64,000 bases of DNA from Candidatus Marinacidobacterales bacterium (GTDB lineage: Bacteria; Acidobacteriota; Vicinamibacteria; Marinacidobacterales; SMYC01), in assembly GCA_965237955.1 (NCBI GenBank), contig OZ250169.1, forward strand, positions 8,032,001-8,096,000. The letters are read 5' to 3'. Each line of letters starts with the position of its first letter. Positions within the stretch are counted from its first letter, which is position 1. Below are positions 13,172-63,090 of this stretch, in pieces. The notes under the pieces are model-generated. The model made no database searches, was not told where the DNA came from, and was given only the letters and a program-made list of their open reading frames with translations. Made by a program: the position numbers and the translations under genes.

Positions 13172-13324
13172 CGTCCTGTGCCAAAACTCGGCCCTTTTGA
13201 AATAGACCACAAATCAGCAGCTTAGACGCCCTTGGATGATGGTGGCGCTCTACATAATATAGATGAACTCGACGATGGCCCGTCGCGCGGGTCTTAGAGT
13301 GCGTTTGTATTCTTGGACACGACG
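13172..13324. mobile_element. 153-bp hybrid mini-element (CGTCC-type end + inverted CGTCG-type end)
   Basis: Starts CGTCCTGTGCCAAAACT, ends TTGGACACGACG. Confidence 0.75.
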
Positions 13325-13442
13325 CGCAGACCTACCCGCCAGGTCCGCCCGTTGCGGACGCATTCCGGGCCGACTTCGAAGCTGAGAAGGAAAGGCTTGC
13401 GCGAGAGCTCGGGCCCGCGCCGCCCACCTAGGGTGGCCGTCG

Positions 13443-14201
13443 CTACCGACGAATGATCTGCTGCTTCAGGAGCGCGTCGACGGCGACGACGAGATTCTCG
13501 AAAGGCTGCTCCGTACTCGGCGCGGGTTGCAGCCGTCCTTCGCGATCGATTAGGTAGTTGGCGGGGTATCGCGCCGTCGTCTGATAAATCTCGGGGACGT
13601 CCCCCTCGATCGTCAGAAGGGGGTAGCTCACCGACAGGACGTTTTCTTCGAAGTTGAGCTGCGTTTCGAGGTCCTCTGTGGAGAGGCCGAAGACCATGAA
13701 TCCCTGTTTCTTGCGTTCCTGATAGAGCTTGTCGAGACCCGGCATTTCCTTGCGGCACGGCGGACACCAGGTCGCCCAAACGTTTACGAGCACGACCTTT
13801 CCTCCATGCTCGTCGAGACGATGAGTGTTGCCGTGGATGTCCGCCGTCGAGAAAGGCGGCGCCTCGACGTCACTGAGCGCCAGATTCCGCGCCTGCGTAG
13901 CGCGCTCGACGACGCCTCGAATCGGAAGGAACACGAGACCGAGCGACAAAATGCCGAGCATCAGGCCCACCTTGCTCACGGTTGAGAAGGCTCCTTTGCG
14001 GTGGTCGGCGAGCGCGAGGACGAGAGTGATGATGCCCGGCAAGGCCATCGCGATCGCGACTATGGAGAGACGGAAGACGAAGTCGGCGTCCCTGTCGGCG
14101 CTCGCGCGCGTCAGGCTCCGATAGACGAACAGGCCAAGACCCGCTGCCGCAAAGGGCGACGCGACGCCGGCCCATAGAGTCCGAAAGTACAGCTTCGACA
14201 T
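13443..14201 (-). CDS. TlpA-family disulfide reductase with 3 N-terminal TM helices, copy 1 (intact)
   Basis: VNVWATWCPPCR.EMP thioredoxin motif. Confidence 0.88.
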   Translation of the reverse strand: MSKLYFRTLWAGVASPFAAAGLGLFVYRSLTRASADRDADFVFRLSIVAIAMALPGIITLVLALADHRKGAFSTVSKVGLMLGILSLGLVFLPIRGVVERATQARNLALSDVEAPPFSTADIHGNTHRLDEHGGKVVLVNVWATWCPPCRKEMPGLDKLYQERKKQGFMVFGLSTEDLETQLNFEENVLSVSYPLLTIEGDVPEIYQTTARYPANYLIDREGRLQPAPSTEQPFENLVVAVDALLKQQIIRR

Positions 14202-14478
14202 AACGAAGCCATTCTAGCGTGAGACGGTTCGGTAGCGTGCTAGGGTATTGTCAGGTGCTATCAAGTTGAGACGGCGACTGACACAATGAGCCGATGAACA
14301 GCCAGCCATCCCGCTACCACATTAATAAGGGGCAATGCCGTTCGCCGAATGATGGAGGCCAAAAGCGAGCGTGGCAGTAGCCGCGGGTTGGCTTTACAGG
14401 CGTGGCCTACCTTAAAGCGTTGCGACGAGGGCGCGTTGCTAGCCGGTCTTGAGTTCGTTTGTATTTTTGGACACGACG

Positions 14479-14848
14479 GCGATGAGCCTTCGGTGCCAAG
14501 CCAGAAGGGTTTCCGGTGTGACGATACCGGCGACTTCTGCCAAGAGTTTCCGGCCAAGCGCCTTACCCTTTACCGCGAGCCGACGTCGCTCGTCGTCTGT
14601 GAGACGAAGCTTCCTCCCGCAGAGCCGAGCTTTGAGGATTTTGTTCTCCTCGAGCAAGTAGACGATAGCGGCCTGATGGTCACGCTGGAGCCAACCAGCG
14701 ATGGCGACGACCAACAAGGTCAAGGGCTGGACCGGCGTGCTCATGACCGAGGATTCTAGCTCCCATTGGCCAATCAAACGTAGATACGTCTATTCCGAAA
14801 CGTCCCGGCGGGCCGGTCTTGAGTTCGTTTGTGTTTCTGGACACGACG
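14479..14848 (-). mobile_element. CGTCG-type integrase-core element, left end + truncated transposase
   Basis: Near-identical to the 5' part of 29266-30742; cut at 14478 by another CGTCG end. Confidence 0.85.
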
Positions 14849-14862
14849 CCCTACCGCGGTCC

Positions 14863-15299
14863 TCAGACTTGGAAGCTACCATGCTGGGCGCGACCCCGAA
14901 CTAACTTTCGAATGTGTCGCTTGTCGTAGTATCGTCCGATACCGATACCAGGACAGTGCTCTCGCGCCGTGTTCCACTGTGAACGAGTAGCGATTGGCGA
15001 GTCTTTGCCCGGCGTGAAGGGGAAGTTCCGGCACTGCGTCGGCCGCACGTCGTAGATCCCACAGCCCTTCGTTCTCGGATCCAGGAATACGCAGGTGCCC
15101 GAAGCCTCCGATAGAACGCGATGGTCGCCACGTTCCTCAATCGCCCACGCAACCCCAGCCGTCTGCAACCGACCCACATCGCGCTTGCTCAAAAAGACGC
15201 CCTCGACGTCACCCTTGCCGAACATTGACTGTGAGCAGCAGTGACCGCAGTCTGGTTGGCACTCGAATCTCAAACCTTTCTTAATCCATCTCATTCCAT
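14863..15299 (-). CDS. YkgJ-family (CxxCxxCC) Fe-S/zinc cluster protein
   Basis: GLRFECQPDCGHCC, CVFL, C.IY..RP.QCR.FPF, CPGIG; start uncertain. Confidence 0.8.
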
Positions 15300-15381
15300 G
15301 TACCGCGCAGTCGCCGCTCGGAGCTCCCGACTTGGACCCCTCATTCGTCCTCTTGCGCTCCGACTGGCATGAACAGCATCC

Positions 15382-15480
15382 AAATAACGAACCGGGGAGT
15401 TGCGGCCGGGGGCCGGGCAAAAGAGACAGACTACAGCTAATGCAGTGCGCCCGGCCGTCAGCTTCAATGGCGCGTTAGAA
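15382..15480 (-). other. Putative integron attC site
   Basis: Minus strand TTCTAAC...GCTGACGGCCGGG...CCCGGCCGCAAC...GTTATTT; overlaps the stop codon of the upstream ORF. Confidence 0.6.
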
Positions 15481-61049: not shown

Positions 61050-61370
61050 CATCATCGGCCTCTACAAAACCGAGATGACCCATCGACGCGGGCCCTGGCG
61101 TGGTCTCGAGGACATCGAGTTCGCCACCCTCGAGTGGGTGCATTGGTACAACACGCAACGATTCCTGGAGCCGATCGTGTGAGATACGCTGTACTTTACG
61201 TGGTATTTGCATTCCCATCGCACATGCGACAGGCTTTTCCATTCGTGCATGCAGGTTCTCCTTTCGGAGGCCCCACAGGGTCTTCCCGGAGGGGGAACCT
61301 AGTACACGTCGGATCGCTCGAAGCTCTTCGGGTCACGCCGCCAGAGGCGGCGGATTTAGTAGCGGATTAA
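61050..61370. mobile_element. IS3 3' fragment (+) fused to IS200 left end and tnpA N-terminus (-)
   Basis: [38 protein letters not shown] with a CGCCGCCAGAGGCGGCG hairpin upstream. Confidence 0.75.
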
Positions 61371-61484
61371 GACCCTCGGGACAGACGATTGTAAAGCCTA
61401 CGGCCCTTGGCCCGGTCGCAAACACAGACACTAAGCTGCTGATTTATGGCCTATTTCAAAAGGGCCGAGTTTTGGCACAGGACG
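61371..61484 (-). mobile_element. Solo left end of the CGTCC-type element
   Basis: Matches 57735-57847. Confidence 0.85.
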
Positions 61485-61630
61485 GGGTTCTCTTCCACGC
61501 GGACATTAATCTCGTGACGGATGGCGTGCTCCATCTCGCTCGCCTTCGCCTCGTCGGTCTTGAGCGCATCAACCTTCTCTTCAAACTCCCGGCGAGAAAA
61601 GCTGAACCTCCTTGACCAGGATCTGGATGC

Positions 61631-61858
61631 CGGCCGCTCGACAGCTACGAAACCGTCCTGAACTTCATACGGACCACCAAGACCAAGACCGGGCTCAAGG
61701 TAAACGCCCGTCTCGTCAAGAAGCAGTATGCCAAGGGCATCAAAATCTCAGACCCAGCGATGACAGTACTAAACTTCAAACGACCCACTTCGCTGCCGAA
61801 ATGGAACTACACATTGCGTCCATCCAAGAATGGGAAATAATTTTTGCCGGTGTGCTAG
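61631..61858 (+). mobile_element. ISAzo13 transposase C-terminal remnant
   Basis: RPLDSYETVLNFIRTTKTKTGLKV...Y.KGIKISD...WNYTL. Confidence 0.75.
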
Positions 61859-61869
61859 TATCGCCTGCC

Positions 61870-62610
61870 ATGGCGCTGCGAGAGGAGCTGACGGTGGCGG
61901 GGGCGTTCTTGTTCCGCTGGCGCAGTTATTTTCCGCTAGGTGCCCTGGTCCTCGTAGTGTCCCAGATGCGTCACGTCGCGCACGGTGGCGCGCGGTATCC
62001 CGACAGCCTTCCCTGGGGAGCATTGTGTCTCGTGGTCGCTCTCGCCGGTCTCGGTGTGAGGGCCTACGTCGCCGGCCATGTGCCACAGGGCACGTCGGGA
62101 CGCAACACTCGATCTCAAATCTGCGAAGGGCTCAACACGGATGGCGCCTATTCGATGGTCCGTCACCCACTGTACCTCGGCAATTTCTTCATCTGGCTGG
62201 GTGTAGCGCTCGTACCGCGAAGCGCGTGGCTATTGCTTCTGGTTACGGCCGCGTTCTGGATCTACTACGAGCGGATCATGTATGCGGAGGAGGAGTTTCT
62301 TCGGAACAAGTTCGGCGAGCGTTACCTCTTCTGGGCACGAACCACACCCGCGTTCCTGCCCAACCCTCGGCTCTTCCGTCGACCCTCGTTGCCATTCTCG
62401 CTTCGGACCGTTCTTCGAAGGGAGTGCTCGAGCTGGTTCGGGGTCATCGCGTCGTTTGCGTTGCTCGAGACGATGGCGAATTCGAGTGCTCATGGTCGCC
62501 TCGGGCTCGGCGCGGGCTGGACGACGTTGGTGACCATCTGCGGCCTCACCTATGTGGCGTTGCGGTGCGTGAAGCGACGTACCCATTGGCTGGACGTCGC
62601 GGGACGCTGA
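61870..62610 (+). CDS. ICMT/PEMT-family membrane methyltransferase, LmtA-like (lipid A phosphate methyltransferase)
   Basis: MAL.EE...G..LFRWRSY.P, TSGRNT, G.YS.VRHPLY.GN, EE.FL..KFG. Confidence 0.8.
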   Translation: MALREELTVAGAFLFRWRSYFPLGALVLVVSQMRHVAHGGARYPDSLPWGALCLVVALAGLGVRAYVAGHVPQGTSGRNTRSQICEGLNTDGAYSMVRHPLYLGNFFIWLGVALVPRSAWLLLLVTAAFWIYYERIMYAEEEFLRNKFGERYLFWARTTPAFLPNPRLFRRPSLPFSLRTVLRRECSSWFGVIASFALLETMANSSAHGRLGLGAGWTTLVTICGLTYVALRCVKRRTHWLDVAGR

Positions 62611-62657
62611 GTGCGAGGTTTCAGCATTCCTTCAGAGTTCTCGCCTAAACTGAGCGG

Positions 62658-62797
62658 GTGGAAATCCTGATCGTGGAGGACGACGAGCGCATGGCGTCCC
62701 TCCTGAAGCGAGGCCTCGAGAAGGAAGGCCATGTCGCGACCCTCACGGCAGACGGCCCAGAAGGGCTCGACTTCGCAATGTCGCGCACCTTCGACCT
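62658..62797 (+). pseudogene. Response regulator receiver N-terminus, truncated by a CGTCC end
   Basis: ILIVEDD..MA..L..GL..EG...DG.EGL...FDLV. Confidence 0.8.
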
Positions 62798-63090
62798 CGT
62801 CCTGTGCCAAAACTCGGCCCTTTTGAAATAGACCACAAATCAGCAGCTTAGACGCCCTTGGAATCCGCGCAGAAGCGAGGGTATCTCGCGCCGCAGGGCT
62901 GTCTTCCGACCTGTGCCTTCTATTTTATTCATCCGCGGGCACCAGCTCGCGACGAGCCTTGAAGGCAGAGATGAGAGCAAGAACAAACGACGAAATCATG
63001 TAGGTATGGTGCCGGTAGACCGAAGACCAATCAAGTTCGGGGCGCGCGGATGAATAAATAGAAGGCACAGCCGAATTTTGGCACAGGACG
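62798..63090. mobile_element. 293-bp composite mini-element: CGTCC ends enclosing a about 160-bp TGTGCC-ended mini-element
   Basis: First about 112 bp match the LSR-unit leader; inner inverted CTGTGCCTTCTATTT ends. Confidence 0.75.

Follow-up and report, generated by a model that had tools for sequence, protein, structure and literature searches.

The 64,000-nucleotide stretch of DNA analyzed here, which we call the window, comes from Candidatus Marinacidobacterales bacterium (assembly GCA_965237955.1, contig OZ250169.1, positions 8,032,001 to 8,096,000), whose genome is a single contig of 8.13 Mb. At 27693..29120 on the plus strand, the window carries a complete insertion sequence (IS) of 1428 bp, referred to here as the query element. 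The query element encodes a transposase with a DD(35)E core, is bounded by terminal inverted repeats (TIRs), and adjoins a one-sided target motif with no fixed target-site duplication (TSD), and in its family one flank can be replaced while the other stays. We conclude that this behavior is real, family-wide and apparently undescribed, in a DDE family that has no curated name. To our knowledge, every well-studied DDE transposase couples both ends and leaves a fixed stagger. On balance, the finished genomes from which we infer all steps lean somewhat toward a different route, replicative strand transfer of one end at a time.

The target of the query element is read in one direction. AYCC stands before 222 of 502 ends in the source genome (exact and one-mismatch copies of the terminal 16-mer), where about 3.6 would be expected from its genome frequency of 0.72%, and the complement GGRT stands before none of the 502. 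The polar adjacency that a first-pass annotation had proposed from the window alone is thus borne out genome-wide. At the 452 exact ends, position -2 is C in 403, G in 46, T in 3 and A in 0, and position -4 is A in 301; over 503 distinct flanks, A or T occupies -2 in 4. Since many ends lie within other repeats, the sequence of the uncut site is available. Two such empty alleles had been reported and are indeed present in the window: one in istB, ...GCGACCC^AG, cut after 10526 (10516..10535, minus strand; second copy at 42903, also minus), for the junction at 27693, and one at the flank of a large-serine-recombinase (LSR) unit, ...ATTCCC^TG, cut after 21578 (21569..21588, plus strand; second copy at 38073), for the junction at 53400. 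From 154 clean empty alleles the consensus target is gAYCC^NGT, and the logo is one-sided, with nothing above 0.07 bits outside -5..+3 when positions -30..+30 are considered. Position +1 is unconstrained in these alleles (A 45, C 61, G 22, T 26), and therefore the terminal C belongs to the element, as had been claimed.

A fixed-stagger, two-ended enzyme must yield a target logo that is symmetric about the stagger. We compared empty-allele logos at offsets from -12 to +8, and symmetry was rejected at every offset for the query element (best p 6.7e-75, 173 empty alleles). Symmetry was also rejected for a sister element with a related transposase (best p 1.3e-16, 58 empty alleles). An IS903-like control in the same genome was symmetric at -9 (p 0.58, 61 sites). 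Moreover, 6-base complementary pairs of flanks were below expectation (42 versus 107).

The absence of a fixed TSD, which had been noted in the window, holds well beyond it. None of 22 full-length copies in the source genome has a repeat longer than 2 bp (0 bp in 19, 1 bp in 2 and 2 bp in 1), and none of 39 full-length copies in other genomes has a repeat longer than 3 bp (33 with none, 3 of 1 bp, 2 of 2 bp and one of 3 bp). A fixed TSD of 4-3000 bp was sought at 148 pairs of facing ends, and no pair had an exact repeat of at least 4 bp; 2-3 bp were common to 11 of the 148, about what the make-up of the flanks gives by a hand estimate. Among control elements of the same genome, TSDs are kept by 27 of 31 IS256 copies, 12 of 13 IS3-like copies and 5 of 6 copies of a second rve element, and are mostly gone in place in IS6 (0 of 10 kept) and the IS903-like element (6 of 80 kept); ISAzo13, IS21, one IS3 and the LSR unit were left out for mis-called ends. 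The IS903-like element, which we presume to be of that type from the Pfam domain DDE_Tnp_1_5, nevertheless has scattered 9-bp partners (7 versus 0.9 expected) although its in-place TSDs are gone. We note that this element, present in the window at 38373-39338, has 80 full copies and 220 ends, with a clean palindromic 9-bp logo and almost no in-place TSD. Separately, a TGT-ended subfamily has three candidate 3-bp TSDs, which were set aside for want of a confirming empty allele.

Partners of the query junctions were not found elsewhere either. The first-pass annotation had set against its own reading the possibility of symmetric flanks with TSD partners at other loci; these were looked for genome-wide and did not appear. 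Reciprocal junctions on shared empty alleles were absent between -19 and +15 bp; one was seen at +16 with a shorter probe, and with a longer probe none lay closer than 20 bp. Of 190 cases, a single one had the remainder of the target behind the opposite end, and joints of old flank to target remainder were sought for 154 targets, with none convincing among 88 discordant matches.

Deletions and duplications begin exactly at an end. In six Streptomyces plasmids, an element that is 99.0-100% identical has four left flanks, six right flanks and no repeat. Over 38 kb, NBC_01243 and NBC_00053 show 99.92% identity and have the left flank in common, but next to the right end about 6.4 kb is missing from NBC_01243, with the cut at CGGCC^ACT. 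Next to the left end, NBC_01369 is shorter by 24.9 kb than NBC_00826 and NBC_00257, with the cut at GAGCC^CCT. The elements compared in these one-sided events are 99.7-100% identical, and the shorter allele is probably the derived one, since the longer allele holds the uncut motif. Such losses support the proposal of the first-pass annotation that the ends are joined independently and directionally, with deletion of adjacent DNA. Comparison with relatives gave one further one-sided empty site, GGCCCC^GCA; the 777 bp that follow it had no match in the filled genome, which is 96% complete.

Duplications bounded by ends are rare and long, from 20 to 1763 bp. An inverted duplication of at least 8.6 kb (99.8% identical), continued by a further 2.2 kb, begins at the end at 651011 of the source genome. 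A 2843-bp unit with sister-type ends (2545797-2548639) is flanked in single-copy DNA by an 88-bp direct repeat that holds the 3' ends of a surA-like gene and a glycosyltransferase gene, and these two genes abut within 16 bp in 6 of 13 loci of relatives. The motif also stands at both cuts in low-copy pairs of 20, 383 and 1763 bp whose members are now widely separated. Ends also occur back to back with spacers of 12, 24, 25 and 27 bp, three of which are copies of other loci. Repeats of 869, 572, 207 and 937 bp around other units lie in repeats and may be due to chance; at the 572-bp repeat (691386-694267 of the source genome), a 1346-bp TGT-ended member lies inside a copy of itself. A 40-bp pair was dropped, the motif being missing at one cut. 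A model of local tandem duplication was likewise rejected, as empty alleles had no orientation bias (64 same, 58 opposite).

Both ends sit beside the same one-directional motif, likely because each end is transferred singly to one strand. In such a scheme, the transposase would nick at the 3' end of one TIR, and the freed 3' end would attack one strand at a motif, with host replication resolving the branch. Attack outward on the same strand would give an adjacent deletion, attack across the element on the same strand would give a copy-out circle with neighboring DNA (compare the back-to-back ends above), and attack on the opposite strand would give a fold-back duplication. A new insertion would need a second motif, separately chosen on the other strand. 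If the second motif is chosen separately, the stagger would be variable, with either a long duplication, which is seen rarely, or a loss of target, which would be the usual survivor; long duplications would be removed by recombination. Finally, ends trimmed to as little as 16-60 bp apparently still function in trans; this would account for the mini elements and the LSR composite described below.

Several observations weigh against single-end transfer. The motif is pseudo-palindromic about -1 (GAC-nnn-GTC), and -1 is its best symmetry offset, though rejected; a dimer may therefore read the site. Complementary pairs of flanks are in excess over 3 bases (2041 versus 465 in a column shuffle), an excess that we attribute to a GG^T subclass, with A at -4, read forward. 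The motif on the opposite strand peaks at offset -6 (11 of 154 sites versus about 2.5). Two TGT-ended subfamilies are less clearly asymmetric (p 1.3e-4 with 33 sites and p 0.011 with 15 sites), and the IS6 control was itself weakly symmetric (best offset -8, p 0.014, 13 sites). Moreover, in-place long duplications number 5 among 3762 facing pairs, four of them in repeats, and the sole one in single-copy DNA belongs to the sister element and not to the query element. A search reaching up to 9.5 kb turned up no long duplication at any of 28 elements from genomes and plasmids that are mostly low-copy, and clean fresh insertions with both flanks were sought in close relatives, with none found.

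Could a conventional two-ended enzyme leave this record? Concerted copy-in of the IS26 or IS903 type would make a short fixed TSD, and its founding junctions could have been overwritten by adjacent deletions while an asymmetric complex keeps the motif-selected junction. Ten of 14 TIR positions agree with the IS6/IS26 consensus GGTTCTGTTGCAAA (PMC6807381), adjacent deletion is a known product of the copy-in route (PMC11708052), and the IS6 and IS903-like copies of the source genome have mostly lost their in-place TSDs as well. The IS903-like element, however, keeps its symmetric logo and its scattered partners where the query element does not; unselected second ends make up at most a few percent of junctions (the 4 of 503 with A or T at -2); no reciprocal junction falls between -19 and +15 bp; and the transposase has no IS6 hidden Markov model (HMM) match and lies in a separate clade. 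We regard copy-in as unlikely, and we hold a similarly low opinion of copy-out-paste-in of the IS3, IS481 or IS1202 type, in which a figure-eight step would be aimed at the motif and circles of the element plus a variable spacer would be reinserted through recombination or a further single-end step. The nearest HMMs are those of IS481 and IS3, the back-to-back ends resemble circle junctions, and variable TSD classes are known in IS1202 and IS481EU (PMC10045372, bioRxiv 2022.12.17.520857). Nonetheless, fixed repeats of 3-6, 16-17 or 24-28 bp are absent (0 of 148 facing pairs with an exact repeat of at least 4 bp), the spacers vary in length and three of them duplicate other loci, and the target remainder lies behind the opposite end in that single case of 190. 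Copy-out and single-end transfer have the single-strand step in common and differ only in how new copies arrive.

Two further alternatives are less probable still. A conservative exchange of one end, guided by likeness between target and donor junction through end-target complementarity or an IS26-type targeted conservative Holliday junction, draws on the NGT with which the query target continues, like its own CGT end, and on the TSD-free products that IS26 yields by single strand transfer (PMC7885326). The IS26 route requires extended identity (PMC7885326), however, and convincing reciprocal joints were lacking for the 154 targets. The same complementarity had been suggested in the first-pass annotation from the mini-palindrome GAC-CCC-GTC, and it fails because the sister element, with the same CGT end, has a target that continues (T/G)C(T/A)T (58 empty alleles); TGT-ended Streptomyces members, moreover, cut before CCT or ACT. 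We consider exchange distinctly improbable. Least probable of all, to the point of being hard to credit, is that the pattern reflects plain homologous recombination among copies, insertion into pre-existing breaks or assembly error. The source genome does hold more than 500 ends, and TSD-free IS481 and IS5 events have been described at rearrangements (PMC11708052). Recombination, however, would scatter partners yet keep complementary flanks, and breaks give no 8-bp motif; the polarity counts (222 AYCC and 0 GGRT among 502) contradict it, the same polarity is seen in isolate plasmids and low-copy genomes, and IS256 and IS3-like copies of the source genome keep their TSDs.

The query element is a DDE (rve) insertion sequence, with a catalytic triad in an RNase H fold, TIRs and many genomic positions. 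A single open frame (27821..28891, plus strand) encodes a transposase of 356 amino acids (aa) with N-terminal helices, a helix-turn-helix (HTH) and an RNase H-fold core, and it matches rve_3, HTH_32 and HTH_21. Residues D178, D244 and E279 form a DD(35)E triad that is invariant in 78 aligned homologues. An AlphaFold model (pLDDT 78, pTM 0.58) contains the RNase H core, and its best Foldseek matches were Mos1, IstA and HIV integrase, at 11-17% identity and E values of about 1e-8 to 1e-7; by sequence, the transposase had no match in the PDB, and no phage match was found. TIRs of about 103 bp were defined by end-to-end alignment at 27693..27795 (left, plus strand) and 29018..29120 (right, minus strand), with the outer 16 bp being the motif common to all ends. 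The element limits 27693-29120 and the GACCC facing each end, both given in the first-pass annotation, were verified.

The transposase was assigned to none of the profiled families tested. It scored 101.4 bits against the IS481 profile NF033577 (cut-off 224), as compared with 72-90 bits for five other family members (seven proteins tested, five in the family), and 82.8 bits against the IS3 profile NF033516 (cut-off 160). It was also below the cut-offs for IS630 and IS21, and the IS6 profile NF033587 did not match it at E 0.01. NF033594 (ISNCY_2), which we take to cover IS1202, had no match in the source genome at E 1e-40. In a tree built without IS21 and IS30, 33 family rows split from 23 IS3, IS481, IS6, ISNCY_2 and other rve rows with support of 100/100 and a branch of 1.17; the IS481 rows were nearest, weakly (70.6/56), and the IS3 rows formed a separate clade. 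The family comprises at least 7983 protein clusters (7983 of 8000 scored candidates at E 1e-30), labeled "integrase core". Copies of the query element itself at 97-99% identity occur in five other genera belonging to two families, which suggests horizontal spread; 17 of 31 relatives match, as do 17 of 301 genomes phylum-wide and 106 plasmid records, mostly from Streptomyces and Leptospira.

End and target vary across the family about a common core. Family ends begin CGT, TGT or TGC and run into a conserved core ending AAAA, and the target has C or G two bases before the cut and mostly C or G two after. In 45 distant elements, position -2 was C in 60, G in 22, A in 7 and T in 1 of 90, some of the end calls being wrong (about 6 of 80 end pairs were mis-called in this survey), and YGT ends with polar flanks recur in Myxococcota, Streptomyces and Bradyrhizobium. 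The 5'-CGT terminus emphasized at first pass holds for the query ends but was overstated: relatives end TGT or TGC in the same register, and CGT is therefore a variant of the IS3/IS481-type TG end.

The figure-eight route of IS3 elements begins with single-end strand transfer, and single-end chemistry is familiar from IS911. A polar short target, no TSD and one-ended events are found in IS91/ISCR and IS200/IS605, which have HUH enzymes and unlike left and right ends; by contrast, the enzyme of the query element is a DDE transposase of RNase H fold, and the two ends of the element are equivalent and inverted. The query element shares with IS3 the rve core and HTH_21, and IS3-type copy-out has been described (bioRxiv 2022.12.17.520857), but it has one open reading frame (ORF), no orfA/orfB frameshift and no 3-5 bp TSD, and the single-end attack of IS3 falls beside the partner end where that of the query element would fall at a genomic motif. 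IS481 is alike in having a single ORF, an HTH joined to an rve DD(35)E core and about the same size; many relatives of the query element have TG-type ends, and the IS481 profile gave the best HMM score. Unlike IS481, the query transposase is below the NF033577 cut-off in a separate clade, with no short fixed TSD and a polar target at both ends. In P. fluorescens, the initial reading of IS481 copies at REP sites gave them 4-bp TSDs (PMC11708052). A 5'-TGT end is given as an IS481 feature (bioRxiv 2022.12.17.520857); the query element ends CGT and its relatives TGT or TGC in the same register.

With IS6/IS26, the query element shares the in-register TIR match, the loss of in-place TSDs and adjacent deletions, and IS26 has a single-strand transfer route between two copies, termed targeted conservative (PMC7885326). 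However, the query transposase has no NF033587 match and, at 356 aa, has extra N-terminal helices; IS6/IS26 ends start GG and family ends CG or TG; the 8-bp TSD of IS6/IS26 has no counterpart, symmetry at offset -8 having been rejected; and the query element needs no second IS copy as target. IS1202 and IS481EU are related rve transposases with an unusual variability of TSD length, 5-6, 16-17 and 27-28 bp in the former and about 4, 15 and 25 bp in the latter (PMC10045372, bioRxiv 2022.12.17.520857). Those TSDs fall into discrete helical-turn classes per insertion, whereas the query family mostly has none and rarely 20-1763 bp. IS1549/IS1634 makes direct repeats of 8-514 bp, for which there was no mechanistic model at the time (PMC2266710), but its enzyme is IS4-related and its long repeats occur per copy, while in the query family long repeats are rare and deletions dominate. 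In short, the family acts like an IS26-type replicative deletion-maker, and the features tested place it in none of IS6, IS3, IS481 and IS1202. A literature search, with most subscription journals and ISfinder outside it, found no description of these ends or of this target rule, and the accessible portions of PMC10045372, PMC11708052, PMC7885326, PMC3031569, PMC2266710 and bioRxiv 2022.12.17.520857 mention no family-wide polar target at both ends. Members may be filed in ISfinder under IS481, IS3 or ISNCY.

If the ends are uncoupled, the element would be a maker of deletions and duplications rather than a clean inserter. Uncoupled strand transfer could then be studied in a simple natural system, as could the origin of long variable target duplications. 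Uncoupling would also explain why a family of at least 7983 clusters has no curated IS name, as there would be no TSD for annotators to find. In these acidobacteria, with 932 family ends counted in one genome, the family is apparently one of the main causes of fragmentation in the IS-rich third of the chromosome; Streptomyces plasmids lose multi-gene blocks to it.

A broader reading is tentative, and we give it rather less than even credence. The whole cross-phylum "integrase core" family may never perform concerted two-end integration, each end picking its own polar motif, and may spread by deletions, copy-out circles and variable duplications, with one-ended Leptospira members acting as an integron-like cassette shuffler. 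Relatives on Leptospira plasmids have a single end and variable flanks. One such member, 29% identical, lies beside a rep-like gene with one end, and end-like sites are directly oriented upstream and downstream. Four Leptospira loci have four different right flanks, of which two duplicate the 3' tail of rep; small genes come next. The end region occurs in 47 plasmid records, some adjoining Imm40. The arrangement looks integron-like, as though a cassette array were run by a one-ended DDE enzyme.

In the source genome, the majority of ends are short remnants that are fused to other sequence. There are 452 exact matches to the 16-mer end, 50 with a single mismatch and 52 with two, and 169 of 543 ends share less than 170 bp with any other end. 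Eighteen junctions starting with CGTCCTG had been listed in the window; every coordinate is real, the flanks are GACCC six times, CACCC three times, TACCC twice, GATCC twice and five singles, and none is GGGTN. All 18 are ends, but the one at 29266 belongs to the sister element (55% protein identity) and not to the query element. Family-type ends in the window number 33, or 15 beyond that list, and at 8 further CGTCCTG 7-mers the sequence beyond does not continue as an end. Family ends lie almost wholly within IS-dense blocks at 0-1.15, 2.0-3.7 and 7.4-8.1 Mb of the source genome, with one in 1.16-2.0 Mb and 38 in 3.7-7.4 Mb. Remnant lengths are strongly skewed to 14-130 bp, which falls inside the long TIR, and the inner edge carries no motif. 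That short remnants are small inserts in otherwise intact loci was unsupported, since 61 matches among 155 tested were repeats.

In the window, the sister element (29266..30742, minus strand) lies between two facing sister-type ends and has its transposase ORF at 29427-30620. A nonautonomous mini element of 317 bp (16028..16344), made of end pieces of 159 and 31 bp, has about 16 copies with differing flanks, and another of 293 bp (62798..63090) is bounded by end pieces of 54 and 21 bp; mini-element families of 317/318 bp (those 16 or so copies), 134, 329, 345 and 392 bp occur genome-wide. On the minus strand are a right-end remnant of 1080 bp (53400..54479), joined at the LSR-unit flank whose empty alleles are at 21578 and 38073, a left-end remnant of 356 bp (57493..57847) and an end remnant of 117 bp (61368..61484). 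A right-end remnant of 149 bp (47712..47860) is joined within an IS3 copy. Plus-strand end remnants comprise 54 bp at 13172..13225, 54 bp at 45479..45532 (empty allele at 13564, minus strand), 59 bp at 60398..60456 and 52 bp at 60645..60696.

Three further 54-bp remnants on the plus strand are fused to LSR units: 19183..19236 (unit 19183-21578, ORF 19715-21481), 35619..35672 (unit 35619-38073, ORF 36210-37976) and 50944..50997 (unit 50944-53399, ORF 51227-53302). Two groups of ends, of 33 and 15, are fused to the LSR unit in the source genome. Fusions of the LSR unit to the 54-bp end number about 70 genome-wide, possibly mobilized as a one-ended composite. IS21 copies lie at 25433-27692, 43494-45050 and 11117-12673, among about 42 in the source genome, and a 39-base joint that "goes back" is found at 25471/25433 in an IS21 copy. 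A groEL gene lies at 32974-34626 within the IS-rich block, and a groEL-like piece, labeled by eye from its translation and with no Pfam hit, lies inside the 2843-bp sister-ended unit; both are pieces of core genes captured between ends.

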